This document shows, one piece after another, positions 12,807-31,140 of a stretch of 64,000 bases of DNA. A model generated the notes under the pieces. That model ran no database searches. It was given only the letters and a program-made list of their open reading frames with translations, and was not told the origin of the DNA. Position numbers and translations under genes: made by a program. Numbering within the stretch: the stretch's first letter is position 1; each line of letters opens with the position of its first letter. This stretch comes from Bacteriovoracaceae bacterium (GTDB lineage Bacteria; Bdellovibrionota; Bacteriovoracia; Bacteriovoracales; Bacteriovoracaceae), in contig JABFRR010000003.1 in NCBI GenBank assembly GCA_013141065.1, positions 252,415 through 316,414 on the forward strand, read 5' to 3'.

Positions 12807-13476
12807 AATAGAAATAAGATTAAAAAAACTAAAAGCAGAACTTAAAAAAGTTGAGCTCATCGCAGTTAGTAAGTATTCTGAAATTGAAGATGTAGTGAGG
12901 GCCTACGAATGTGGTCAATTAAGTTTTGGTGAAAATCGAGTTTCTGATCTTGAAATAAAAGCTGAGTATTTTAAGAATAATAATTTAAACGATGTGAAGT
13001 GGCATTTCATCGGTCACCTTCAAAGCAATAAAGCACGTGAGCTATTAAAAATTCCTGGTCTCTATGCCATTCACTCGGTCGACTCACTCAGGCTTTTAGA
13101 AGAGTTGCTCAAAAAAGAGCACGAATTTAAGGGGTCAGAACTTAAAATATTTTTTCAAATCAATACTAGCCATGAAAATGAAAAATCCGGGTTTGAATCC
13201 ATGGATGAACTAAAAAAAGCAGTTCAATTACTTCTCACACGTACAGATTCTAAGTTAAAAATAGAAGGTTTAATGACAATGGGGGCGATTCGGACTGAAG
13301 ATGTTAAGGCTTCTGCGCTTAAATCTTTTAGAGATTTAAAGGCCATTAGAGAGCAACTATCGATTACTTTTGGTCTTAGTCACCTCAAACTATCCATGGG
13401 AATGAGTGGGGATTATAAAGAGGCCCTAGCTGAAGGTGCAGATTATATCCGTATAGGCTCTTTAATTTTTAAATAG
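12793..13476 (+). CDS. yggS: PLP homeostasis protein
   Basis: LIAVSK, FGENRV, WHFIGHLQSNK, GLMTMG, LSMGMSGDY...G...IRIGS.IF; start approximate. Confidence 0.92.
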   Translation: MQKNEIEIRLKKLKAELKKVELIAVSKYSEIEDVVRAYECGQLSFGENRVSDLEIKAEYFKNNNLNDVKWHFIGHLQSNKARELLKIPGLYAIHSVDSLRLLEELLKKEHEFKGSELKIFFQINTSHENEKSGFESMDELKKAVQLLLTRTDSKLKIEGLMTMGAIRTEDVKASALKSFRDLKAIREQLSITFGLSHLKLSMGMSGDYKEALAEGADYIRIGSLIFK

Positions 13477-13644
13477 TTCCATTTGTTCTATTGTAATATT
13501 TTCACAACTTAAGTTCCTTTTAGCCTCCAAGGCAATTAATTTGATATATCCAATTATTAGATAAGAAGGCTATGGGTTTTCTATGGGAAAAATGAGAAGA
13601 CATAGTGTTATAGTGCTCTAAATCAATTGAAACATGAGGTCGTT

Positions 13645-14592
13645 ATGAGTCAAAGAAAAGTGCCGGAATTAAGTTTGTTAAGTTATGTTCACGGAAGTGA
13701 AAATGATAAAAATAAATTTGTTGATAATATTTTCACTGGACTTAAAGATTACGGATTTATTATTTTAAAAGACCATACGATAGAGCAAAAAAAAATTGAT
13801 AAAGCCTACGCGCTGGTAAAAGAATTTTTTGATTTACCACTTGAAACAAAATTAAAATATCAAGGTAATAATGGTGGTCAACGTGGTTATACTCCTTTTA
13901 AAACTGAGCACGCAAAAAATAATAAGAACCCTGACTTAAAAGAGTTTTGGCATGTTGGTAGAGAACTTGTATCAACAAGTGCCTATAAAGGTGTTTACCC
14001 TGAAAATGTCTGGCCTGGGGAAGTCGCTGAACTTAAAAAAACATTTATTGAGTTATTTGAGGCCATGGACTCAACTTCTATTTTACTTCTTGAAACTATT
14101 GGTAAGGGTTTAGATTTGCCTCAGGATTATTTTACAAAAATGATACACGATGGAAATTCGATTATTCGTATGATTCATTATCCACCAACAAAAGGTGAAG
14201 ACACAAAAAACTCAGTCAGAGCTGCTGCTCATGAAGATATTAATCTTATCACTATGCTTGTTGGTGCAACTGATTCAGGCCTTCAGTTATTGGAGAGAGA
14301 TGGATCGTGGTTAGATGTTGAATCTCGACCAGGTGAAATCGTTGTCGATACAGGAGACATGATGTCGAGAATCACTAATAATTTATTACCTTCAACTACT
14401 CATAGAGTTATCAATCCAAGTGATGATGGCAGTGCTCGTTTTTCAATGCCATTTTTTGTCCACCCACATTCGAATGCAATGTTGAAATGTATTCCTTCAT
14501 GTGTAAATAATGGTGGCAGAGTTGCAGAAGATGATATTCGTGCTGGAGATTTTCTTAATCAAAGACTTAGAGAAATTGGACTTATAAAATAA
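13645..14592 (+). CDS. 2OG-Fe(II) oxygenase, isopenicillin N synthase family
   Basis: HYPP, AAAHEDINLIT (HxD), THRV, RFSMPFF. Confidence 0.9.
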   Translation: MSQRKVPELSLLSYVHGSENDKNKFVDNIFTGLKDYGFIILKDHTIEQKKIDKAYALVKEFFDLPLETKLKYQGNNGGQRGYTPFKTEHAKNNKNPDLKEFWHVGRELVSTSAYKGVYPENVWPGEVAELKKTFIELFEAMDSTSILLLETIGKGLDLPQDYFTKMIHDGNSIIRMIHYPPTKGEDTKNSVRAAAHEDINLITMLVGATDSGLQLLERDGSWLDVESRPGEIVVDTGDMMSRITNNLLPSTTHRVINPSDDGSARFSMPFFVHPHSNAMLKCIPSCVNNGGRVAEDDIRAGDFLNQRLREIGLIK

Positions 14593-15537
14593 TTAAAATC
14601 TCACACCAACACTGCCGCGAATTGTAAGGCTGTTGGTGGTTTGATTTGTTCCATCTAAGAATGTTTCAGATGTACTAACTGATTCAATACCTGATTCAAA
14701 AACCATCGAAAATGATTGGCTTATTTTAAGTAGGTAACCTATTCTGGCTTCGGGCAATATGATAACCCTACCGACAACATCTTCATTATCGATTGTCGTC
14801 GTTGATCGGCCAATACCTGCAGCAAGGGTAACGTAAAAATTATTTTTCAATGAAGCTGAATAATTGACAAAATGATAGGTGGTGGCCAAAAGCGCCATTG
14901 TTCTTCTAGTGGGAATATCGAGTTGAGGATCTTCTATTCGGTAGATTTCACTATCAATTCGTAGTCCGAGACTCATTTCAAACTCAGGAATGAATTTATA
15001 ATTGTAGTCAAAACTAAAATTATTTCCTGATCTGCCAGTATTTTTTTCATCTACGACTGATGAAGAAGATTGTGCTAGGCCTTTTGAGAGACTTGCCTTT
15101 AAAGTGAAAGTTGTAGGATTATTCACGACATTCATTCTTTCTTTGATTGTTAAATCTGGAACGAGTCCAGAGTCACCGGCCACTTCAAGCGCAACATTTC
15201 CATAAACAGTAGAGTTAATACTAATGATATCATTTTTATTAAAGGGTAAAGTGACATTCATGTCGAGCGGTGCCCACATCGAAAAATCTCTATTAACTTC
15301 AATTGCCCTGCAAACGATACTTACGTTATCATTAGCAAATATAATTTCCTGGCCTTTGAAAACACCATCTTTCATCCCCTTGGAGATAATTAATGAGCGT
15401 TGGTTTTTTGAAACCGTCTGAATAACTGTCAATTCTTCTTTTGCATGTAATTGCGAAGACAACTGTAAAGAGACTAAAAAACATAGGCTTAAGATTAGTT
15501 CTCTATAAATGGGCTTCTTCTTTTGAGTTAGTCTCAT
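14593..15537 (-). CDS. exported protein with probable C-terminal outer-membrane beta-barrel
   Basis: Signal peptide, amphipathic strands, terminal GVRF. Confidence 0.6.
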   Translation of the reverse strand: MRLTQKKKPIYRELILSLCFLVSLQLSSQLHAKEELTVIQTVSKNQRSLIISKGMKDGVFKGQEIIFANDNVSIVCRAIEVNRDFSMWAPLDMNVTLPFNKNDIISINSTVYGNVALEVAGDSGLVPDLTIKERMNVVNNPTTFTLKASLSKGLAQSSSSVVDEKNTGRSGNNFSFDYNYKFIPEFEMSLGLRIDSEIYRIEDPQLDIPTRRTMALLATTYHFVNYSASLKNNFYVTLAAGIGRSTTTIDNEDVVGRVIILPEARIGYLLKISQSFSMVFESGIESVSTSETFLDGTNQTTNSLTIRGSVGVRF

Positions 15538-15685
15538 AAGGTCATTTTAACACACTAAGTGCCAATAAAAAGACTCACTTTTTTGACCCCCCCTGTAAAA
15601 TGCCCACCCGAAACGCTCTGATATTGCAAGTCTTTTTCTCAATAGTGCAATTAGTAACCGACAATGGAACTAGGAGATAAAATAG

Positions 15686-15712
15686 TAAAGATCGCTATGT
15701 ATAGTTCGATAA
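15686..15712 (+). promoter_or_regulatory. sigma28 (FliA)-type promoter of the giant lipoprotein
   Basis: TAAA-N15-TTCGATAA (consensus TAAA-N15-GCCGATAA), ending 34 nt before the ATG. Confidence 0.65.
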
Positions 15713-15745
15713 GATTTAGAAATAGAATTGAGGAGTATAGGCCCA

Positions 15746-18700
15746 ATGTTTTTTCTTAAGTCCTTATTTACTACAGTGACATTTTCAGCATTACTTTTTG
15801 CTGTTAGTAGTTGCGTTCCCAAAGCGACCGAGAAAAAAGCTAATTGTGGTGTTAATCAATCTTTTAATGCTTCAACTCGTTCTTGTGTTTCTGTCAGTGA
15901 GTTGAGAAAAAAACCAGTAGGAACAAAAACTTCTGCAACCATGACCGAAGAGGTTCCACTTAAAGTTGAACTCACTTATACCGATGGCAATAATAATTCG
16001 GCCATCGCGTGCTCGGTTACACCTGGAAGCTCTAATCTTGAAATTATTTCCCCAGCACTTTTTAATTCAAACTTTTTTAATGAAATCGATGCTTATTACG
16101 GTTCAGTAATATTATTGGCAAGTTATATTCCTTTTCCTGATTTTGTCGCAGGAGATGCTTATAAGCTTGCGATGACTAATGCGCGAACAAGTTTAATAGC
16201 TGCTCTTAACCATGCAAATGTTCTGACTCAAGCTGATATCATTGTCGCACGGGCCGACGACATAATTACCCTTGCTGGTGCTCATACAGGTCTTGCCAGT
16301 GTGGCAGGAATGCTTACACAAACAACTGCGAGAAGAACGACTTTCATTAATTACTATGATCAATTTAAAAATCGTTGTGAATGTTTATCTGGAACTTGCC
16401 ATACTATTTTAATTCCGAAGCAAAACCAATTTGGTGCCGCTAATTTTAGTTACACAATTAGCGATCTAGATGGTGAAAGTGAAGAACGAGCAGTAAGTGT
16501 GTCTATAACGGCTCGCTCAAGAGCGACCACAACACATTTAAAGCCTGTTGCAAGATCAGGTAGTGCAAGTGGAGCAGAAAGTAATACGGCCACACCTATA
16601 GGCTTTCCAGTCAATATTCCAGAAGCTGCAGATACTAATTATAATGCTGGAAGTTCAACAACATTTACCTATAGTTTTGATGGAACAATTGTTGGAAGTG
16701 GAATTGCTTCTTATGGACAAACACTATTTGGGAAATTAACTTCTTGTATGGGGCTATCAGGTTCGGCCACTAATGATAGAACATGTACCTACACTCCAAA
16801 TAATGGAGACACATTCGATACTATTATTTTTTCTCAAGCTAATGCAACAATCGGAACACTTACCTATACGGCCATTGCTAATGGATTAGTTGGAACAAAT
16901 GTATCAATACAATACTTCGATTTACGTTCAACAAATCCATCAATTGATGCTCCCAATGCAGATGTAAGTAAAATGTTGCCCTTTTCATTGGCATCCCTCG
17001 TGACAAATGAAAGTTTCATTAGAGTAGAGGGAAATGAAATTAAAGTTTTCATGCATCCTACTGTTACAAGTGCATTGGATATCGAAAATCTAATTAATAA
17101 TGATCCTCAGGCCAATCGACTTGTTTTAGTTTCAGGAGGCTTGCCGACAGATTTTCCTGATCCGGTTGTTGAAACTCTTTTACCTGTTAATTTAGCTGGT
17201 GGAACGGATGGATACGATTCTTTTTCTTTTAAGGCCAATAATACATTTGCTAATTCTGTGAATACATCAAAAATGACGATTAAAATTACTGGAACAAACG
17301 ATGCTCCAAGAGTTCCAGCAGAAATTGCTCAAGTTGTTCCCGATGTAACAATACTTGAAACGGCCGTCGGGCAAACAGCAATTTTTAATTTTCGAGATGT
17401 TGATAGTTTTGCAACTGCCTTTACCATTAATGCAGCACTAGATTCACTGGCCTGTACAACTGCCAGTGCCGCTCCTGCCTATGTGGCTTTAGTGACCAAT
17501 CCTATTCTCACAAATACACCACTCACTCTGGCCTTTGATCCATTGGCGCCTTCTGTACCGGTTTGTGATCTTGTAGGGGATTGCACATTCAATGTGACGT
17601 TAAGTAAAACACTTCCATTTCTTAGCAATGATTATGATAGAGAAGTTTGCTTGTATTATACTATTACTGACCTATCAGGGGCGACTTCCTCACTTGCACA
17701 AGCAGTAAAAATAAAAGTGACACCCATCAATGACGTCCCGGTCATTTCGGTATTGCCAAGTGCAGACTACGACGAAGACAGTGCAGGTTTTACAACCCTC
17801 ACAGTTGATAGTGGATCAATTCATCCTTTTGAGCTTGATCAAACCATGGATGTCACATTGTCGAGTTCTGTGCCGACGCTTATTCCGAACGTAGCATGTA
17901 AGGATTATACTGCTGCTACGACTGCTCCAACACCAACGGCCGTTGGACAATATTATTTAAACACAACTGGTACAGAATATAAGTGTTATGTTTCAACAGG
18001 AACAACTGTTACTGATTGGAAGTTATATCCTTCTTTAACGGCAATACCAGTTTGTCCTTATACACTACAAAGTAAAGGGCCTCCGACAGTAACACCAACT
18101 GCGGCAAACCTCCATCACCTCGATACCAAAAATAATATTTGTTATAAATCGAGTGCAGTGGGTGCCACATTTGTTTGGAGTAAAAATACAGAAATTTCTG
18201 AATATAAAATCGCCTCTGCTTCTTTGCCTGATATTTCAGGAAATTCGACAATCACAATTACTGTAAAAGACAGCGGTGGAGTGACTAACGGTGGAATTGA
18301 TACTGCGACAACAACTTTTGTGCAAACTGTTTTACCACTTAACGATGCTCCTTATATTTTAACTAAGTTTGCCTCCGTAGAAACCAACGAAGGAGGAGCA
18401 ATTCAATCTTCTGGCGTTGTCATAGATGAAGATTTTGCTGCCACTGCAGATGAAGATGTTCAAAATATTATTATCAAAGATATCACAACTGATAATACCA
18501 ATGTTTTACCTAAGTCATCTATTTCATTTTTCTTTGATGAAAATGATAATACAATTCGCGACGCTGCTGAAACACTTTATAATGCAGCTTCGTTACCTTC
18601 TGCTAATCTTGATTCTGATTCAACGAAAGATTTCAAACGTCACAAGTTGTATTTTAAATTAGATCCCGTGGATGGTATTTCAGGAAACGCAAACGTAACG

Positions 18701-20986
18701 GTTACATTTGAAGATACCGACTTAGCTGTCACTGTTCCTGCTCAAATTCCATTGGAGTCTAGTTTTACTTTTGCTTTTATTGTTCATCCGATTGCGGCCT
18801 TACATAACGGTTGGAAAAACATTACTTCTGTTGGAATTAAAACTAATAAACTCAATTCACCTGTAAGTGCTAAACTTGCGGCCAATAATAAAGATGTGGC
18901 CCCTGAATCAGATATTAAATGTAGCTATGATACTACTGGATGCTCTGGTGGAGAGTCTGGAGCGCAATGCTTGAATGTTACGAGTCCACATAATGTTGTG
19001 ACACCAATAATAGCTAATGCGATTTATTGGGATCGTTCAAATAAAACGTGTTACAGAAATACAGTGATCAATGATAAATTTTCATGGGTAGAATTTAATA
19101 CAACATGTCCACTCACCAGAGTCGTTGGCTTTTGCGGCGGAGTTAATTGTATAAAGTCTTCTGATCCAACAACGGCTGGAGTCATTCCGACTGCACTTAA
19201 ACAATATGCTTATGATACTACGGCAAATAAATGTTATGTGAGTACCGGATTAACTGTGAATGATTGGATAGAGTATAATCCTTCTAAAGTAAATTTAGAA
19301 TGGAAGCCTTTTACTATTGTTGGCTCTGGAAGTTTTAATATTGTCAGTGTTGCAAGTCATAGAATTTATCGACGCGAAGCTGGTGAAGATTTCGATTTCT
19401 CGGCAACTGGACATATTGGAAGTGTTGCAAGCAATGTTTACAAATATACCGACAATACCGCACTATCTGGTAAGGTTTATTACTATCTCGTTCGTCCAGT
19501 TGACTCTATTAAATCTTTTCCTACCTTTACTCCAGAAGTTTATTCTGAGGTACGAGTTGTGGCATCCCCAACTAATAACGTATTTGTTCACCGTTGGATG
19601 ATGAATCAAGAAGTTTGTAATAGTATGAATATTACTCAAACAACTTCTCCAAACTTTGTCGATCCAACAAATAACTTCCGCTGTCAGTATAAAGGCCCTG
19701 GTGAAACGGCAGGATATTACGATTCGGGTGCTGATTTATTTGTCGATCTTCAAGAGCTAGGATGTGCTTATGCTCCTGCTCCAAAATGTGGGGCCAATGG
19801 ATGCGTTGGTATGGGCAATCCGGTAGCTTCTGGTGCGAGTGCTGCACTTTTAACTGATCACGATCTTTATTATGATCGCTCAAATGGAAAATGTTATGTC
19901 TATGATTCTGGAACTGCTCCTGTGTGGAATGAAATAGAAACTTACCCAGGGGTTCTCGCTTCAACAATTACCAACAAACTGGTCTCTGCACTTAATGCTC
20001 CAGTCGTTAATATCACTCAAACAAGAGCAGCTGCAATTTGTAGCAGCCGAGATGCTCCTACTACTGACTTAGTTCTTCCTAGTCCTGTTCTTCCGAATAA
20101 AAAACAATTTATTGCATACTCTGCTTCACGTTACGATATTACTGATAGCCAAATCACTCCACTTGAAGAAGGTTTTTCATTAAATGCCTACTCTCGTTGT
20201 AATAGTAGTTCTGCTAGTGGATTAGAGGCCACTTACGTCGATGCCGCCATACCTTCGACGACTTTTATTTTCTCTCTTCCTGGAACGTCTTCATCTTTAA
20301 TTAGATCGATGGTGACCGGCTCTGTTCCTAGTACACTCAATTATTCTACAGAAGCTTGTACTTCTCGTTACGGTATTCAAGATCTGTACGGTAACGTCGC
20401 AGAGTGGACGACCGATAGAATGCAATGCTCGGCCGCTGATCTGACTTGTACTTCACAGGGATTGGCATCTAGCTATTCGACCTTTGATTTTGGTGTTAAT
20501 GATTTTTACGGTTTTAACTTAGAAACGGGGCCTTATAATGACAGCAATGGAATCACTCCAGGGCCTGAAGCACTGGATACCTATTTAACGAGCTGGACCT
20601 TTGCTGATGAATTGTATGAAGCCGGAAAATTTTCATTTCCAATGGGTCTGCCTATTAATGTTAATATCGATAGAGTTTTAGTGATTGAAGATTCTCCCGC
20701 AATTCCTTATATTCTTGATATCGGTCCTGTTTCAGGAATTACAACTGCTAAACTTCATGAAGACAGCATTATTGTCAATGGTGCTGATGTGAAAGCTGGA
20801 GCTACCGACATTGGAGCTTGGGCAGTTGGTGGTGGCTATAAATCTGGTAATGGTGCAGGTCGATTTAGTATGGAACTTATTGAAGCTTCCACAGCACGTT
20901 CTGATGTAGGATTAAGATGCGTCGTTCCTGTCGATAAAACTTTATATCCAGTAGATTCAAGACCTCAATATAATTATTCATACTGA
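15746..20986 (+). CDS. giant multidomain surface lipoprotein/adhesin (cadherin/Ig-like repeats, FN3, FGE-sulfatase/C-type-lectin-like C-terminus)
   Basis: GAGGAG RBS; lipobox LLFAVSSC; TNDAP/INDVP/LNDAP linkers; FN3-like LEW...IYRR...YTD......YYYLVRP; YGIQDLYGNVAEWT and DVGLRCV. Confidence 0.8.
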   Translation: MFFLKSLFTTVTFSALLFAVSSCVPKATEKKANCGVNQSFNASTRSCVSVSELRKKPVGTKTSATMTEEVPLKVELTYTDGNNNSAIACSVTPGSSNLEIISPALFNSNFFNEIDAYYGSVILLASYIPFPDFVAGDAYKLAMTNARTSLIAALNHANVLTQADIIVARADDIITLAGAHTGLASVAGMLTQTTARRTTFINYYDQFKNRCECLSGTCHTILIPKQNQFGAANFSYTISDLDGESEERAVSVSITARSRATTTHLKPVARSGSASGAESNTATPIGFPVNIPEAADTNYNAGSSTTFTYSFDGTIVGSGIASYGQTLFGKLTSCMGLSGSATNDRTCTYTPNNGDTFDTIIFSQANATIGTLTYTAIANGLVGTNVSIQYFDLRSTNPSIDAPNADVSKMLPFSLASLVTNESFIRVEGNEIKVFMHPTVTSALDIENLINNDPQANRLVLVSGGLPTDFPDPVVETLLPVNLAGGTDGYDSFSFKANNTFANSVNTSKMTIKITGTNDAPRVPAEIAQVVPDVTILETAVGQTAIFNFRDVDSFATAFTINAALDSLACTTASAAPAYVALVTNPILTNTPLTLAFDPLAPSVPVCDLVGDCTFNVTLSKTLPFLSNDYDREVCLYYTITDLSGATSSLAQAVKIKVTPINDVPVISVLPSADYDEDSAGFTTLTVDSGSIHPFELDQTMDVTLSSSVPTLIPNVACKDYTAATTAPTPTAVGQYYLNTTGTEYKCYVSTGTTVTDWKLYPSLTAIPVCPYTLQSKGPPTVTPTAANLHHLDTKNNICYKSSAVGATFVWSKNTEISEYKIASASLPDISGNSTITITVKDSGGVTNGGIDTATTTFVQTVLPLNDAPYILTKFASVETNEGGAIQSSGVVIDEDFAATADEDVQNIIIKDITTDNTNVLPKSSISFFFDENDNTIRDAAETLYNAASLPSANLDSDSTKDFKRHKLYFKLDPVDGISGNANVTVTFEDTDLAVTVPAQIPLESSFTFAFIVHPIAALHNGWKNITSVGIKTNKLNSPVSAKLAANNKDVAPESDIKCSYDTTGCSGGESGAQCLNVTSPHNVVTPIIANAIYWDRSNKTCYRNTVINDKFSWVEFNTTCPLTRVVGFCGGVNCIKSSDPTTAGVIPTALKQYAYDTTANKCYVSTGLTVNDWIEYNPSKVNLEWKPFTIVGSGSFNIVSVASHRIYRREAGEDFDFSATGHIGSVASNVYKYTDNTALSGKVYYYLVRPVDSIKSFPTFTPEVYSEVRVVASPTNNVFVHRWMMNQEVCNSMNITQTTSPNFVDPTNNFRCQYKGPGETAGYYDSGADLFVDLQELGCAYAPAPKCGANGCVGMGNPVASGASAALLTDHDLYYDRSNGKCYVYDSGTAPVWNEIETYPGVLASTITNKLVSALNAPVVNITQTRAAAICSSRDAPTTDLVLPSPVLPNKKQFIAYSASRYDITDSQITPLEEGFSLNAYSRCNSSSASGLEATYVDAAIPSTTFIFSLPGTSSSLIRSMVTGSVPSTLNYSTEACTSRYGIQDLYGNVAEWTTDRMQCSAADLTCTSQGLASSYSTFDFGVNDFYGFNLETGPYNDSNGITPGPEALDTYLTSWTFADELYEAGKFSFPMGLPINVNIDRVLVIEDSPAIPYILDIGPVSGITTAKLHEDSIIVNGADVKAGATDIGAWAVGGGYKSGNGAGRFSMELIEASTARSDVGLRCVVPVDKTLYPVDSRPQYNYSY

Positions 20987-21017
20987 TATCATTTGTCTCT
21001 TTTGTGAGATTTAGGTT

Positions 21018-21051
21018 AAAATATCCTTGTTAGAATTCAAGGATGTTTTTT
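21018..21051 (+). terminator. intrinsic terminator after the adhesin gene; 3' arm contains the next gene's AAGGA
   Basis: AAAATATCCTTG-N8-CAAGGATGTTTT stem running into a T-tract. Confidence 0.5.
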
Positions 21052-21052
21052 A

Positions 21053-21391
21053 ATGTTTCAAAGTCTTGGTCTTTTAGTAATTTCCAATTTATTTATGACA
21101 TTTGCTTGGTATGGGCATTTGAAATCTCATCAACATTCTAAACTCTGGGTAGTCATACTTGTCTCGTGGAGCATTGCTTTTTTTGAATACTGTTTTCAAG
21201 TTCCTGCCAACCGGCTGGGGATCACGGTCATGAATATGGCCCAGCTCAAAGTCATGCAAGAAGTGATCACAATGACAGTCTTTGCACTTTTTGCAGTGTT
21301 ATATATGAAAGTTCCACTGACAAAAAATTTTTTATATGCCAGTGTATGTTTAGTGATGGCCGCTTTTTTTATCTTTCGTGATAAAGTCTAG
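21053..21391 (+). CDS. DMT family (DUF486) membrane protein
   Basis: SNLFMTFAWYGHLK, SW.IAFFEYCFQVPANR.G, QLKVMQEVIT. Confidence 0.88.
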   Translation: MFQSLGLLVISNLFMTFAWYGHLKSHQHSKLWVVILVSWSIAFFEYCFQVPANRLGITVMNMAQLKVMQEVITMTVFALFAVLYMKVPLTKNFLYASVCLVMAAFFIFRDKV

Positions 21392-21418
21392 CTTAATAAT
21401 TTTAGGGAAGAGGTTTTT

Positions 21419-22246
21419 ATGGGAAAAGTGATTAGTTTTATCAATCAAAAAGGTGGCGTGGGAAAAACGACGATGGCGTTTAATACCGCTTTTGCTTTAG
21501 CACAAAATGGAAAAAAAGTTTTGGCCATTGATCTTGATCCACAGGCAAACCTCACTTTACTTTTTAATGCTCAAAATAAACATAATCTTCATCATCTCTT
21601 AATTAATTCAATAAAAGAATTAAAGATGCTCCATGTGCCAATGATACTTTCAGAAATACTTCACTATAGCACCAATGATGTAGTGGTTGATCTTATTCCA
21701 GGTGGCCAAGAACTTTCAGGTTTTGATTTAACAGTTGCTTCAATCAATGCTCCTAGACAGTTAGTTTTGAAAAAATTTCTTGAGGCCAATGAACTCTCTC
21801 GTCGTTATGACTATATTATTATTGATTGTCCTCCAACTTTAGGACTTCTGGTCGTTAATGCACTTTGTGCGAGTGATGGAGTCATTATTCCATTTAAAGC
21901 TGATGATTTTTCATATAAAGGACTCGAACATTTTTATCAAGTACTAGCAGATATTGAAGAAATGGGAATTGTGACTGCGCCTGAAATTGTATTACATGTA
22001 CCTAATTTAGTTGATTTAAGAAGAAAACAAGAACAAGACGATTTAGAAAAAATTGTAAAATCAATTGGTGAAGAACTTGGTGAGGGGATGGTTTTTTCTC
22101 CTTTTTTAAATAAGGCAGGTCTAGTAAAATCATTATCAGGTAGAAAATCAGTATTTGATTTTAAAGGGCAAGACTTTAATGAACTTCGTGAGAAATTTAT
22201 AGGAATTGCTGAAAAAATAGAGGAGTGGTCAAATGTCCGTCAATAA
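21419..22246 (+). CDS. ParA/Soj family ATPase (orphan)
   Basis: NQKGGVGKTT, IDLDPQAN, IIIDCPPTLG. Confidence 0.9.
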   Translation: MGKVISFINQKGGVGKTTMAFNTAFALAQNGKKVLAIDLDPQANLTLLFNAQNKHNLHHLLINSIKELKMLHVPMILSEILHYSTNDVVVDLIPGGQELSGFDLTVASINAPRQLVLKKFLEANELSRRYDYIIIDCPPTLGLLVVNALCASDGVIIPFKADDFSYKGLEHFYQVLADIEEMGIVTAPEIVLHVPNLVDLRRKQEQDDLEKIVKSIGEELGEGMVFSPFLNKAGLVKSLSGRKSVFDFKGQDFNELREKFIGIAEKIEEWSNVRQ

Positions 22247-22508
22247 TAAAAGTCTAAATCCTCTTTATGTCGTAAGAAACAACGGAGTTGATGTGGAATC
22301 TGCAAATAGTTTTTTTGATTTATTTTTAAAGAAAACCGGTCTTGATCAAGTGATGGTTGTTTTAGAAAATATTCTAGCGATTCTTCTTTCACAAGTGACG
22401 AGTTACCCGATTTTTATGGAAGTGAAAAAAATATTTGATCAACTTTTTGAAAAAGTTATTGAGCTGATGTTTCAAGCACAACAAATGATGTCTAAATCAA
22501 AAATATAA
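22233..22508 (+). CDS. hypothetical protein overlapping the ParA stop
   Basis: GAGGAG RBS within the ParA 3' end; 91 aa. Confidence 0.6.
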   Translation: MSVNNKSLNPLYVVRNNGVDVESANSFFDLFLKKTGLDQVMVVLENILAILLSQVTSYPIFMEVKKIFDQLFEKVIELMFQAQQMMSKSKI

Positions 22509-22832
22509 TTATTTAGACCGAATTCTTCTCGGTTTAATTTCACTTTCTTTTGGAGCAGGCAAATCTTCTTGAAGGGAATTCACTTTCTTTAATCCTGCAA
22601 GACCTGAACTCACTTCATCAGCAATATAATCGTTAGATAAGAGTGGATCTTTTTCATCTTCATCTAAAGACAATTGGTCGATCGCCTCAACATTGAGCAT
22701 TTGGCTTCTTTCAATAGATAATAGTTCGTCTTCAAGTCCTGATAAATCAATTTCTTGACTGAAAACTAGTGAAGAATGACTAAGGGCCAATGCGAGAAAT
22801 GAGTGTCTTAAAAGTTTTTTAATTTTTTTCAT
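22509..22832 (-). CDS. acidic exported hypothetical protein
   Basis: MKKIKK... signal peptide ending VFS-Q. Confidence 0.55.
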   Translation of the reverse strand: MKKIKKLLRHSFLALALSHSSLVFSQEIDLSGLEDELLSIERSQMLNVEAIDQLSLDEDEKDPLLSNDYIADEVSSGLAGLKKVNSLQEDLPAPKESEIKPRRIRSK

Positions 22833-22887
22833 GAACCATAGTTTTTCACAACCCAAACGGTTTTAAAAGGGCCTTTATAAAAGAAGC

Positions 22888-23979
22888 ATGCTAAATTTGG
22901 CCATGCCGAAAAATGCTAATTTAAATCAAGATAATCAAGATCTTAAGCTTTCTTCCTACTCTTATGATCTCCCTCCCGAACTGGTTGCCCAAAGGCCAAT
23001 CGATGGAGTCAATCGCGACTTGTCCCGCTTAATGGTTTACAACGCCGCAACTGGTCAATTAACTCATGACCATTTTTATAATCTCGATAAGTATATTCCC
23101 GTTGATTCGACTTTAGTTTTTAATCAGTCAAAAGTTTTTCCCTCAAGACTTTTGGGGCAGAAGAATTCTGGTGGGAGAGCGGAACTTTTTTTATTGTCAG
23201 CTGAAAAAAATGAAAAAAATATCTTTCCTTGTTTGATAAAATCTCGCGGGAAAAAAAAGATTGGTGATGTTTTTAATTTTAGTGAGGATTTATCTGCGTT
23301 AATTAAAGAGATTAATGAGGATGGAACATTTGGAGTTCAGTTAACTATTCCCAATAAATTTCCCACCCTAATGAATTACTTACAAAATCACGCAATGATA
23401 CCGATTCCTCCCTATATAAGGAAAGGAGAGAGTGATGAAAAAGATAAAACCTCTTATCAAACTCTTTATTCTAAAGATGTCGGTTCAGTAGCCGCACCAA
23501 CTGCGGGTCTTCATTTTACAGAAAATGTTTTTAATAAATTAAAATTAAAAAAAATTGAAAGTGCTTTTGTTACATTACATGTCGGACTTGGAACTTTTAA
23601 GCCAGTGACTGTTGATAACTTATCTGATCACATTATGCACTCTGAAGATTATTTTATTGATCAAGCAAACCAAAATAAAATTAAAGCTGCTAAAAATATT
23701 TTTGCAGTCGGCACGACTTCCTTGCGAGTTTTAGAATCGAGTTTTGGCCAAGAAGTCACTCCCAATCAAATATACAAAACACAAATTTTTTTACATCCTG
23801 GAATTGAGATTCAAAGTGTTCGGGGATTAATTACCAATTTTCATTTGCCTGAATCCACTCTCTTAATGCTGGTGTCCGCTCTTATCGGTCGCGAAAAAAC
23901 CTTAGAGCTGTATAAACTGGCCGTTTTAGAAAAATACCGTTTTTTTTCTTACGGTGACGCCATGTTGATAATTAAATAA
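22888..23979 (+). CDS. queA: S-adenosylmethionine:tRNA ribosyltransferase-isomerase
   Basis: IPIPPYI, YQT, GSVAAPTAGLHFT, LHVGLGTF, TNFHLP.STL, YRFFSYGDAM. Confidence 0.96.
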   Translation: MLNLAMPKNANLNQDNQDLKLSSYSYDLPPELVAQRPIDGVNRDLSRLMVYNAATGQLTHDHFYNLDKYIPVDSTLVFNQSKVFPSRLLGQKNSGGRAELFLLSAEKNEKNIFPCLIKSRGKKKIGDVFNFSEDLSALIKEINEDGTFGVQLTIPNKFPTLMNYLQNHAMIPIPPYIRKGESDEKDKTSYQTLYSKDVGSVAAPTAGLHFTENVFNKLKLKKIESAFVTLHVGLGTFKPVTVDNLSDHIMHSEDYFIDQANQNKIKAAKNIFAVGTTSLRVLESSFGQEVTPNQIYKTQIFLHPGIEIQSVRGLITNFHLPESTLLMLVSALIGREKTLELYKLAVLEKYRFFSYGDAMLIIK

Positions 23980-23995
23980 AAGGATAGAACTATTT

Positions 23996-25117
23996 ATGTC
24001 GAAAATGATTTTTAAGAAAATCGCTCAATCAAAAAAAGCCAGGGCCGGAGTTATCACAACAGAGCACGGACTTATTGAGACTCCCATTTTTATGCCAGTG
24101 GGAACAAGGGCATCGGTCAAGACGATGTGGCAAGAAGAATTAGAAGAAATGAACGCTCAGATAATTTTGGGAAATACTTATCACCTCTATTTGCGTCCAG
24201 GACATGAATTAATTGAAAAAGTGGGTGGAGGTCTTCACGGTTTTATGAAATGGGACCGGGCGATTTTGACGGATAGTGGAGGCTACCAAGTATTTTCACT
24301 TTCAAGTATGAATAAAGTCACGGAAGAAGGAGTTACATTCTCATCTCATTTGGATGGTTCCAAACATCTTATTAGTCCCGAAAAATCAATGGAAATTCAA
24401 CGCGCTCTCGGAAGTGACATTGTCATGAATTTTGATGAATGCCCGGCCTTACCTGCGACTAAAGATCGTCTCAGAGAAAGTATGGAGCTCACTTTGAGAT
24501 GGGCCCAACGTTGCAGAAATTATCCACTAAAGCCACATCAAAGTCTTTTTGGTATAATCCAGGGTGGTCTACATTTTGATTTGCGAACTGAATGTATGGA
24601 AAGATTAAAATCAATGGATTTTGAAGGCTTTGCTCTCGGTGGCCTTTCTGTTGGTGAAAAAAATGAAGAAATGGTTAATTTTCTCGATCAGTTTGTTCAC
24701 ACAATGCCTGAAGATAAACCTCGCTATCTAATGGGAGTGGGAAAGCCGCTTGATATATTAAATGGAATTAAGGCCGGTATTGATATGTTTGATTGTGTTT
24801 TGCCTACCAGAAATGCGAGAAACGGTCAGTTTCTCACGAAGGGTGGCCCGCTCAATATTAAAAAAGAAAAATTTAAAGAGGATACACTACCTCCGGATCC
24901 AACTTGTAACTGTAAAGTTTGTAAAAAATATAGCCGTTCGTATATTCGACATTTATTCACAGTTGGAGAATACCTAGCGGGAAATATGATTACTTATCAC
25001 AATCTTTATTTTTATTTGGAAATGACTCGAAATGCTAGAGAAGCGATCAAGCTGGATAAGTTTGACGAGTTTTATTCAACGTTTTATAACTCTTATCAAT
25101 CAAATATGTGGAACTAA
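23996..25117 (+). CDS. tgt: queuine tRNA-guanine transglycosylase
   Basis: TPIFMPVGT, NTYHL, TDSGGYQVFSL, DMFDCVLPTR, CNC..C..H zinc site. Confidence 0.97.
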   Translation: MSKMIFKKIAQSKKARAGVITTEHGLIETPIFMPVGTRASVKTMWQEELEEMNAQIILGNTYHLYLRPGHELIEKVGGGLHGFMKWDRAILTDSGGYQVFSLSSMNKVTEEGVTFSSHLDGSKHLISPEKSMEIQRALGSDIVMNFDECPALPATKDRLRESMELTLRWAQRCRNYPLKPHQSLFGIIQGGLHFDLRTECMERLKSMDFEGFALGGLSVGEKNEEMVNFLDQFVHTMPEDKPRYLMGVGKPLDILNGIKAGIDMFDCVLPTRNARNGQFLTKGGPLNIKKEKFKEDTLPPDPTCNCKVCKKYSRSYIRHLFTVGEYLAGNMITYHNLYFYLEMTRNAREAIKLDKFDEFYSTFYNSYQSNMWN

Positions 25118-29334: not shown

Positions 29335-31056
29335 CTAACCTTTTGGAATACAACCAAGACGCTTATCGCTTGTTCGATCACTCGTTGGCGGTGTAGTTTG
29401 GGTTTTACCTTCTAAAGAATCGAAGCTACGAACGGTGAAGAGTTTACGATTTCCTTGCGTGAGAGCATCGGCAGTAGTACTTGTCGGCCAGTAATAATAA
29501 ATAGTTTTCGTATTCATTGAACTTTCATCAGCTCTAATTTTTAATGCATTTTGGATATAAAAACCATAATTTAACAATGTACTTTCACGAACGAGCATTA
29601 ATCCATAAACTGGAACATAGACATTATTTTTGAGAATCATTTCTCCTTCTTTTTCTGCGATGTAGAGTCCTTCTGAATCTCCAATGAACTCACCGAGAAC
29701 GTTAAAGAGAGGTTGGTTTCCATTAAAGTGAGTCGAATTAGGACAGTATGACTTTCCTGACTCTGCGTATGTAAATGGAATCATCACGTAACCTAATAAA
29801 GCATTTTGTGCGGTCACACCATCAGATGTTGGTCTATTGGGAAAGTTGAGTGGAAAAAAAAGATTCATTGTAGATCCTGGCAATTGGTATTCATTGGCCA
29901 GCTTTTCTTCAATAACTTTATTTATCGTTAATCTCCCCCCATTTTCTGCCTTAGCTGTAAATCGCGAATCTGCCTTGTCCCAAAGGGCCAGGGCACCAGG
30001 AATAAGTTCTAATCGTTCATATTCAACAGAGTCTTTACCTGGATGAAGTTGTTCATCGTGACATACGGTCGGGGACTGGGTGTTTCCTCCAGGAGGCAAT
30101 ATAGGCGCAGGCATTTCGTTAGCTGCAAAATAATAAAGTAAGCGAGTATAATTTGTTCTGATAATATTTCCAGTTGCATCAACCATTCCACCGTAAGTCA
30201 TGCATGTGTACTGATTGAGAGGAGTTACTTTTAATGCACCTAGATTTGATCCACTGTCTGTTGTTTGATCTTTTCTTCTAATTTGAAATTCTTTTGATTG
30301 AGCATTCGAGCCAGATTTAAATTCATTTATTTTTAAGATCCAAGTTTTATTTTTGGCGAGCTTGTTCACGTTCACAGTAAATGAGTTTGATCCAGGAGAG
30401 AGATTTGGTGGCAGAGTTTCAGTCGTATTACCATCAGTTGCAGTCACAATACACTGAGGTGTTTCTGGATCGCTACTTAATTGAACAGTACACCAATTAA
30501 ATAGATTTCCGATTTTTGTATTAAGAGCTATTTCTGGCCCGACAGTTGTATTAACGTAAAGAATTGGTTGATCAGAAACTGGCTTATTTGCACATGTCAC
30601 ATCACAATCACTGAGAATATCGGCTTTACCGTTAATACATGAACAAAAATCATTTTTAATAAAAATAGCGTTATTAGGTCGTGTGTCTAAAATAACATCT
30701 GAAACACAAATATTGGCCGAACCATTAACTCTTGAAAGTAAAACATCTGAAGGGACCGTTTCTACCAGTGTTGTTCCACCGGCAATAAGATCTTTTTTTA
30801 TTTTTGACAGTTCTTCTATTTCAGCAATGTGAGTGCCTGATAAGCAGCTCTTTGTACAATTGTCATAGGGTGCACTATAAACTAGCAGGTCACTGCCGCA
30901 GCCATCTTGATTTCCATTATCAATCGAGAAATCCTTAACGAATCCTTTTCTTTTAGCTAGAGAAGTATCCCCAACACATGAAGCAAGCAGGCTTACCAAA
31001 AATATAATTATGGTGGATGCAAAGTATTTTTTTAAATAAATATTACGATTTAGCAT
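29335..31056 (-). CDS. Cys-rich hypothetical lipoprotein
   Basis: Lipobox LLASC; many paired cysteines; AAGAAGA before ATG 31056. Confidence 0.7.
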   Translation of the reverse strand: MLNRNIYLKKYFASTIIIFLVSLLASCVGDTSLAKRKGFVKDFSIDNGNQDGCGSDLLVYSAPYDNCTKSCLSGTHIAEIEELSKIKKDLIAGGTTLVETVPSDVLLSRVNGSANICVSDVILDTRPNNAIFIKNDFCSCINGKADILSDCDVTCANKPVSDQPILYVNTTVGPEIALNTKIGNLFNWCTVQLSSDPETPQCIVTATDGNTTETLPPNLSPGSNSFTVNVNKLAKNKTWILKINEFKSGSNAQSKEFQIRRKDQTTDSGSNLGALKVTPLNQYTCMTYGGMVDATGNIIRTNYTRLLYYFAANEMPAPILPPGGNTQSPTVCHDEQLHPGKDSVEYERLELIPGALALWDKADSRFTAKAENGGRLTINKVIEEKLANEYQLPGSTMNLFFPLNFPNRPTSDGVTAQNALLGYVMIPFTYAESGKSYCPNSTHFNGNQPLFNVLGEFIGDSEGLYIAEKEGEMILKNNVYVPVYGLMLVRESTLLNYGFYIQNALKIRADESSMNTKTIYYYWPTSTTADALTQGNRKLFTVRSFDSLEGKTQTTPPTSDRTSDKRLGCIPKG

Positions 31057-31113
31057 ATTTTCTTCTTTGCTAGTGCGTTCATTAAATTCTTTTAAAATCA
31101 AATCCTAGTCATA

Positions 31114-31140
31114 TTATCGACTTTATATTCTCCAACTTTA
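31114..31140 (-). promoter_or_regulatory. sigma28 (FliA)-type promoter of the Cys-rich lipoprotein
   Basis: Minus strand TAAA-GTTGGAGAATATAAA-GTCGATAA (1 mismatch to consensus). Confidence 0.72.

Follow-up and report, generated by a model that had tools for sequence, protein, structure and literature searches.

The FGE-subtype C-type-lectin (CLec) fold is shared by TaqVP (5vf4), Mtd, TvpA and LdtA, and in the variable proteins of diversity-generating retroelements (DGRs) the binding region is at the extreme C-terminus, with a G-F/L-R strand as its last element. Two of these proteins, TvpA and LdtA, are lipoproteins. Non-catalytic FGE-sulfatase-like domains also occur in the lipoproteins PorK, GldK and GldJ of Bacteroidota type IX secretion and gliding, bacterial cadherin-like/BIg repeat adhesins are built of tandem immunoglobulin (Ig)/cadherin-like domains with xNDxP linkers, and crAss-like phage fibres pair FN3 or a stalk with an FGE-like (SUMF-like) head. 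In the predator Bdellovibrio bacteriovorus, mosaic adhesive trimers (MATs) form trimeric beta-helix/beta-prism fibres that share an N-terminal domain of ~130 amino acids (aa) and in many cases carry an S74 chaperone-protease, and the MAT fibre Bd2740 has a C-type-lectin tip that was compared with Mtd (PMC10769870). Prey recognition by predators other than Bdellovibrio bacteriovorus is poorly understood. Here, we analysed a window of 64,000 nucleotides from a Bacteriovoracaceae bacterium (contig JABFRR010000003.1, positions 252,415 to 316,414), in which one uninterrupted open reading frame of 1746 codons at positions 15746-20986 of the forward strand encodes a giant lipoprotein. We find that a predicted Ig/cadherin-like stalk carries an FN3 domain and a terminal head with an FGE-subtype CLec fold, that the gene is a near-core gene of its family, and that it is preceded by a conserved sigma-28 (FliA)-type promoter. 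By analogy with the systems above, we favour with moderate confidence an outward-reaching adhesin or receptor of the free-swimming stage.

Each element of this protein is already known, from lipoprotein adhesins, cadherin-like stalks or FGE-type CLec binding domains (TvpA, LdtA, Mtd, phage fibres). What appears to be new is their combination in a predator lineage: the head is DGR-like but has no DGR behind it, diversity comes from inserted loops and from recombination in the stalk, the sigma-28 promoter is supported by footprinting, and synteny extends across the family. In the literature searched, no paper describing this protein family was found, and the combination of lipid anchor, helical-bundle insert, CY...W modules, FN3, FGE-like head and sigma-28 promoter is undescribed. 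The head is laid out as in TaqVP, where inserts separate the core elements (PMC6328139), and its terminal position matches that of the binding region in DGR variable proteins. In contrast to the latter, the giant protein is without retroelement, template repeat or hypervariable residues, its head of ~475 aa has much larger inserts and a stalk of ~1250 aa below it, and its family diversifies by loop insertion and recombination rather than by adenine mutagenesis. With the MAT fibres, which are proposed for prey recognition, it shares a predicted long stalk and modular lectin-type tip, whereas it is a lipoprotein of beads-on-a-string Ig/cadherin domains and its stalk is not a beta-helix. When the genome was searched for the S74 peptidase family, matches emerged at three other places and none in the giant gene; the predicted Ig/cadherin stalk and the lack of an S74 domain depart from the architecture described for MAT fibres. 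PorK differs in its size of ~490 aa, in having no Ig stalk and in forming rings with PorN, and the giant gene has no type IX secretion context. The resemblance extends further to the repeat adhesins, through the tandem domains and their linkers, and to the crAss-like phage fibres, through the pairing of FN3 with an FGE-like head.

The ATG at 15746 was chosen as the start over an alternative TTG at 15728 because a Shine-Dalgarno GAGGAG lies 10 nt upstream and the choice agrees with the aligned N-termini of the orthologues. The N-terminus, MFFLKSLFTTVTFSALLFAVSS followed by C, has a lipobox of the pattern [LVI][ASTVI][GAS]C, with FAVSS before the Cys. Wherever the N-terminus of an orthologue can be read, this Cys is there, and a strongly conserved CVPKATEKKAxC comes next; the giant protein is accordingly classed as a lipoprotein, with lipidation itself predicted. 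A sequence-only reading of this DNA had described a giant lipoprotein of ~1746 aa, and the open reading frame, the lipobox and the orthologue N-termini bear this out. The same reading had listed NDAP/NDVP linkers, many Cys residues and two C-terminal motifs near 20369 and 20903, all of which are found: three xNDxP linkers (GTNDAPR at aa 518, PINDVPV at aa 662, PLNDAPY at aa 866), 37 Cys in total, YGIQDLYGNVAEWT beginning at nt 20369 and DVGLRCV beginning at nt 20903. Whole-protein Pfam and NCBIfam scans gave sub-threshold matches alone (FGE-sulfatase, Big_9, Cadherin_5 and the NCBIfam tandem-95 repeat), and the annotation was therefore built on relatives and structure prediction. PDB sequence searches with the single sequence and with a profile returned nothing significant. 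The top single-sequence match, an autolysin, was rejected as a chance alignment of 44 residues.

Next, we investigated the C-terminal part. An AlphaFold2 model of aa 1172-1746, built on 27 sequences (a shallow alignment that leaves domain borders approximate), reached a predicted template modelling (pTM) score of 0.80 and a mean predicted local distance difference test (pLDDT) of 73. It contains an FN3 domain, as had been suggested for the region near 19280-19510, with many FN3 matches in Foldseek and a weak profile match to 3mpc. For the head, Foldseek ranks the DGR variable protein TaqVP first (E 1.2e-4, probability 1.0), followed by Bordetella phage Mtd (E 4.5e-3) and FGE (E 5e-3). Searched against predicted viral structures, the head found a tail fibre of a crAss-like phage (E 2e-6), tail-collar fibres and a phage protein named 'sulfatase-modifying factor enzyme-like', with E-values of 2e-6 to 1e-4 overall. 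Additionally, 21 of 27 family C-termini match Pfam FGE-sulfatase (PF03781) at E <= 0.01, the best at 5.7e-7, and the family profile weakly matches PorK/GldK lipoproteins (E ~0.05) at two classic FGE-domain motifs, PxVxI(t/s)...A..(F/I)C..R...LP and G(l/i)xDxxGNVAEW. The model, the Foldseek matches and the Pfam matches of the relatives all agree with the FGE/C-type-lectin fold that had been proposed for this end of the protein. The most conserved stretch of the entire protein lies at aa 1477-1536 (20174-20353; SRCNSS.A.GLE...IPSTS..YSLPGT.SSGIRS.YTGS) and has a pLDDT <50, so that a loop or interface with a function may lie here beyond the reach of the model.

Similarity to Pfam FGE-sulfatase and the Foldseek matches to FGE structures would also suit an FGE/SUMF1/EgtB-type enzyme acting on an extracytoplasmic substrate, which we regard as very improbable. 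Between GGG(Y) at aa 1695 and GLRC at aa 1722, the counterpart of the FGE catalytic site, there is no Cys, confirming the earlier remark that the catalytic motif is not evident, and the copper-binding Cys pair of FGE is likewise missing from this segment in 25 of the 26 aligned orthologues. The domain is always terminal in giant multi-Ig proteins, and nearly all of the best 150 matches to the C-terminal domain profile (A4) are 1100-2500 aa long with the domain at the C-terminus. Furthermore, this profile finds only 793 representatives among 1.84 billion proteins (342 at E <= 1e-30), which we read as a divergent branch apart from the canonical FGEs.

The best structural match being a DGR variable protein, the head could also be the variable (target) protein of a DGR, and its C-terminal pattern GG-x-(Y/W)-x-x-G-x-x-AG-x-F...G-(F/L)-R-C is one that we take to resemble DGR variable regions. 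To this role we give next to no credence. A second copy of the 3' 287 nt is absent from the genome, which is 92% complete for this search and for that of a reverse transcriptase, and no direct repeats of at least 40 nt occur within 13000-24000. The sole RVT_1 gene of the genome (G000:C6:3846-5393, equivalent to L036:805-2352 on the reverse strand; 515 aa) lies on another contig between type I restriction hsdS and hsdR and is probably a defence-associated reverse transcriptase rather than that of a DGR. Additionally, the flanks are housekeeping genes at all orthologous loci, and the orthologues conserve the segment that corresponds to the variable region. Of the earlier idea of a DGR-type ligand-binding scaffold, the resemblance of the fold to DGR variable proteins holds, and neither a template repeat nor a DGR reverse transcriptase was found in the 92% complete genome. 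For the question of how binding proteins diversify, it is instructive to see the DGR-type lectin scaffold at work with no retroelement and with loop-domain insertion and stalk recombination as the sources of variation.

Upon examining the remainder of the protein, we observe that the AlphaFold2 model of aa 23-1171 (25 aligned sequences, again shallow and with approximate borders; mean pLDDT 79) consists of tandem beta-sandwich domains. Its Foldseek matches include the ectodomains of protocadherin, N-cadherin and C-cadherin as well as titin (E 1e-12 to 1e-13), and bacterial Ig-array proteins such as the Aureispira protein titled grappling-hook protein GhpA in the PDB; in the modelled structure this is read as generic tandem-sandwich similarity. 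The sandwiches, the cadherin matches and the three linkers are in line with the cadherin-like linkers that had been described. Two inserted modules stand out. A four-helix bundle at aa 103-208 (nt 16052-16369; fragment residues 81-186 of the model, pLDDT ~90) is inserted in the first Ig/cadherin-like domain, and an alpha/beta module at aa ~355-495 (16808-17230) is confidently modelled, with its position kept in orthologues. A phage tail-sheath origin of the latter was rejected after no PHROG or Pfam match was found, and the idea that similar modules lie inside the CLec loops of L022, L030 and L032 received no support from phmmer. The acidic cadherin-like domain probably binds Ca2+, judging from its motifs. 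Dispersed mini-modules of the form Y-x-(D/N)-x4-7-C-Y-x8-12-W were also observed, three of them by regular expression (17951-18178, 19205-19267) and more by eye at ~aa 1090 and ~aa 1376, the latter within a CLec insert.

The promoter has the form TAAAG-N16-CGATAA. This strict motif is found upstream of 17 of 24 family members, compared to a mean of 0.0025 in 2000 shuffles, and lies 33-67 nt before the start codon; a relaxed form is found in 19 of 24, and the spacer sequence varies. Within the same genome, a motA-like gene is preceded by the same form (TAAAGATT-N11-TTCGATAA), close variants precede five of six high-scoring flagellin genes, and a fliA gene scores above the NCBIfam cut-off. These observations place the giant gene in the putative sigma-28 (FliA) regulon, and the phylogenetic footprint across the orthologues strengthens the FliA-promoter call made in the sequence-only reading. 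In Bdellovibrio bacteriovorus, the mapped attack-phase consensus TTAAG-N16-CCGATA occurs in 92 of 140 attack-phase promoters and is ascribed to FliA as global attack-phase regulator (PMC3627812). The promoter form of the giant gene matches this consensus, and by analogy FliA attack-phase control may carry over from Bdellovibrio to Bacteriovoracaceae. A scan of the intergenic region 15538-15745 found no sigma-70-like promoter. A second conserved element, of ~32 nt, adjoins or overlaps the -35 of the sigma-28 site without fitting sigma-70 spacing, and in one orthologue group it is shifted by ~10 nt, or one helical turn. Since a hairpin and T-run lie just behind its stop codon, the giant gene is probably a monocistronic unit.

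Turning to the relatives, a word-indexed search recovered 27 homologues, 22 of them full length, with 33-92% identity and no informative names, and a scan of one genome per species found 29 loci, all in Bacteriovoracaceae/Bacteriovorax or in less precisely named Bdellovibrionota/Oligoflexia metagenome-assembled genomes. The C-terminal domain is present in 109 of 151 Bacteriovoracaceae genomes and 59 of 69 genera (85 of 111 high-quality genomes). In a phylum-wide sample it was found in 46 of 57 Bacteriovoracaceae genomes, as opposed to 11 of 194 genomes of the other families, there with much weaker scores. The giant gene is a syntenic near-core gene of Bacteriovoracaceae that is rare elsewhere in the phylum. 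Across ~20 loci, one flank consists of a 2-oxoglutarate (2OG)-Fe(II) oxygenase and a divergent orphan gene, and the other of DMT_6, a ParA-like ATPase, QueA and Tgt. In ~20 genomes, the neighbouring proteins are 75-94% identical compared to 40-67% for the giant protein, indicating that it evolves much faster than its surroundings. The orphan, a protein of 314 aa, invariably adjoins the giant gene in ~20 orthologous loci and keeps its terminal G-x-R-F, as IG(V/L/I)RF, in 20 of 20 orthologues. Searches of Pfam, NCBIfam and the PDB returned no match for it; from its ...IGxRF end, it may be an outer-membrane beta-barrel protein and a possible partner.

Substitution is unevenly distributed along the giant protein. 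Among 26 orthologues, conservation is highest in the CLec core and FN3 and lowest in aa 101-200 and 501-700, and the CLec region nevertheless holds the majority of inserted alignment columns. Orthologue inserts of 70-190 aa occur at four sites, namely after the GNVAEW strand, after GPxND, after IVNG, and between the G-R-Y and G-F-R-C strands, the last of which falls within the stretch that corresponds to a DGR variable region (cf. PMC6328139). The nearest relative, on a Logan contig, has 92% protein identity, and its background DNA identity is ~89% over 19 kb; DNA identity is 74-81% in the 5' third of the gene and 91-98% in the 3' two-thirds. Using the Nei-Gojobori method on this pair, we obtained synonymous divergence (dS) of 0.9-1.3 and nonsynonymous-to-synonymous ratios (dN/dS) of 0.04-0.14 for aa 103-666, compared to dS of 0.10-0.28 and dN/dS of 0-0.09 for aa 1016-1746. 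The four-helix-bundle block is the most divergent (69% identity versus 92% overall; dS 1.28). The pairwise dN/dS is at most 0.21 in every region and gives no sign of positive selection. The shift in dS within the gene suggests that recombination brought a more divergent allele into the N-terminal stalk, rather than positive selection alone. Likewise, L009 and L012 are 87% identical in aa 24-258 and 32% identical in aa 526-872, and such discordant block similarities between pairs indicate an evolutionary mosaic. The word mosaic in the earlier reading holds in this evolutionary sense, of stalk blocks with discordant histories. The CLec loop inserts of L009, L021, L026 and L007 (alignment A2, columns ~540-700 and ~790-850) have a common pattern, G-F-P-x-x-G-x-(I/V)-x-(I/V)...E-x-(I/L/M)-x-Y-(T/S)-G...F-T-G-(V/L)-x-R-G...H, which may correspond to a small domain that is frequent in phage tail and fibre proteins.

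Taken as an adhesin or receptor, the protein would be a giant lipoprotein of the outer membrane that is specific to the Bacteriovoracaceae. Its gene would be transcribed on its own from the FliA promoter and, because of that promoter, within the programme of flagellated free-swimming (attack-phase) cells. After export by Sec and lipidation at Cys23, the Ig/cadherin stalk of ~1150 aa, joined by xNDxP linkers and stiffened by Ca, would hold out the FN3 domain and the non-catalytic CLec head. As in Mtd, TvpA, TaqVP and phage tail fibres, the last strands and loops of the head would form the face that binds a ligand. While the core of the head would be conserved, lineages would add whole insert domains in the loops of the binding face, and stalk blocks would be exchanged by recombination. 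We infer the outer-membrane or surface location, the attack-phase expression and the binding of prey or another surface. An outward-reaching binding protein is favoured because phage fibres and DGR proteins predominate among the structural neighbours, the stalk is long, loop domains differ by lineage and the protein evolves fast compared to the neighbouring genes.

Several observations weigh against this reading. The head fold matches are modest, with E 1e-4 and template modelling (TM) scores of 0.27-0.41, the low TM-scores being attributable to the large inserts, and the protein itself scores 15.3 bits against PF03781 as a whole and 18.9 bits as a fragment, below the cut-off of 23.3 bits. Taken by itself, the promoter motif is weak evidence, since its loose form TAAA-N16-18-CGATAA is not rare in this AT-rich genome, with 92 occurrences where base composition predicts ~79. 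A known exporter of surface lipoproteins was not identified, in searches whose Slam (PF04575) controls gave no signal. A comparison of orthologues for tip variability, which the earlier reading had called for, found such variability in the differing loop insertions and not in the head core, which is the most conserved part (dN/dS ~0.03) and under strong purifying selection. The variation between close strains sits in the lipid-anchored, membrane-proximal N-terminal third. This is not what is predicted for a diversifying distal prey-recognition tip, and a conserved head fits a conserved, possibly self, ligand equally well.

The same conservation keeps alive an alternative that we judge unlikely, though worth weighing, in which the protein is a self-directed structural part of the envelope and the head binds a component of the predator itself. 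This could be the orphan outer-membrane protein encoded next door or the flagellar sheath, or else peptidoglycan, should the protein face the periplasm. The protein would then resemble the non-catalytic FGE-fold proteins PorK, GldK and GldJ, structural parts of envelope machines, and PorK/GldK-type lipoproteins are the sole sequence-level PDB matches of the head. The near invariance of the head between close strains, the near-core status with strict synteny, the invariably adjacent predicted outer-membrane protein, and a sigma-28 control that also suits a flagellum- or sheath-associated role are all consistent with it. However, DGR proteins that bind ligands and phage fibres outweigh PorK among the structural neighbours, a stalk of >1100 aa of Ig-like domains with lineage-specific loop inserts is typical of outward-reaching adhesins, and the protein evolves much faster than its neighbours. 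As such a structural component, it would be a fairly ordinary large envelope protein.

As an outward-reaching adhesin, in contrast, the giant gene offers a concrete, family-wide and tractable candidate for prey recognition, in that a single gene with a conserved promoter encodes a head that can be folded. A more specific version, which we find improbable as a whole, is that it does in Bacteriovoracaceae what the MAT fibres do in Bdellovibrio and serves the whole family for docking to prey in the attack phase. The conserved head would recognise a universal Gram-negative envelope molecule, loop domains and the recombining stalk would tune its range or evade prey or phage pressure, and the adjacent orphan would perhaps act as export or anchoring partner.

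Table 1. Features at the giant lipoprotein gene, in window coordinates (numbered from the first nucleotide of the 64,000).
Feature	Position	Strand	Basis
Orphan 314-aa protein with signal peptide and C-terminal ...IGxRF, divergent from the giant gene	14593..15537	-	Translation
Conserved ~32-nt element ACC(G/T)GACAAT-N~10-GGAGATAAAATAGTAA	15657..15688	+	80% consensus of 19 aligned promoter regions
Sigma-28 (FliA)-type promoter TAAAGATC-N11-TTCGATAA, ending 33 nt 5' of the ATG	15686..15712	+	Orthologue conservation
Shine-Dalgarno GAGGAG, 10 nt 5' of the ATG	15730..15735	+	Sequence
Predicted lipoprotein signal peptide with lipobox AVSS/C (Cys23), followed by conserved tether CVPKATEKKAxC	15746..15814	+	Sequence, orthologue comparison
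Disulfide hairpin and first Ig/cadherin-like domain	15815..16519	+	AlphaFold2 model me41621463296
Second Ig-like domain with inserted alpha/beta module, ending at GTNDAPR	16520..17320	+	AlphaFold2 secondary structure
Two more Ig/cadherin-like domains, ending PINDVPV and PLNDAPY, the second with two Cys-Tyr...Trp mini-modules	17321..18361	+	AlphaFold2, motif search
Acidic cadherin-like domain with invariant E/D/N clusters (ETNEGG, DED, DxNDN)	18362..18790	+	Invariant alignment columns, AlphaFold2 beta-sandwich
Cys-rich region with more CY...W modules	18791..19270	+	AlphaFold2 (in part low confidence), motif search
FN3 domain, aa ~1176-1270	19271..19555	+	AlphaFold2; Foldseek FN3 matches with probability 1.0, TMt 0.55-0.73
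FGE-subtype CLec fold domain, aa 1271-1746, with large inserts, then stop codon	19556..20986	+	Foldseek, Pfam FGE-sulfatase in orthologues, PorK/GldK motif matches
Terminator-like hairpin with 12-bp stem and T-run, 3' of the stop codon and ahead of the following gene	21018..21057	+	

Beyond the giant gene, a second lipoprotein gene of the window at 29335-31140 on the reverse strand (588-aa open reading frame) has TAAAGTTG-N11-GTCGATAA upstream, and several more large lipoproteins of the genome, for instance on contigs C6 and C13, have TAAAG-N16-CGATAA just upstream. The presence of this motif before several large lipoprotein genes suggests a sigma-28-linked set of envelope lipoproteins in the genome. 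Finally, on another contig (G000:C11:113308-126321; L045), we observe three tandem paralogous giant lipoproteins of 1365, 1462 and 1513 aa, which combine FN3 or HYDIN-like Ig domains with a region related to the FN3/CLec part of the giant protein.

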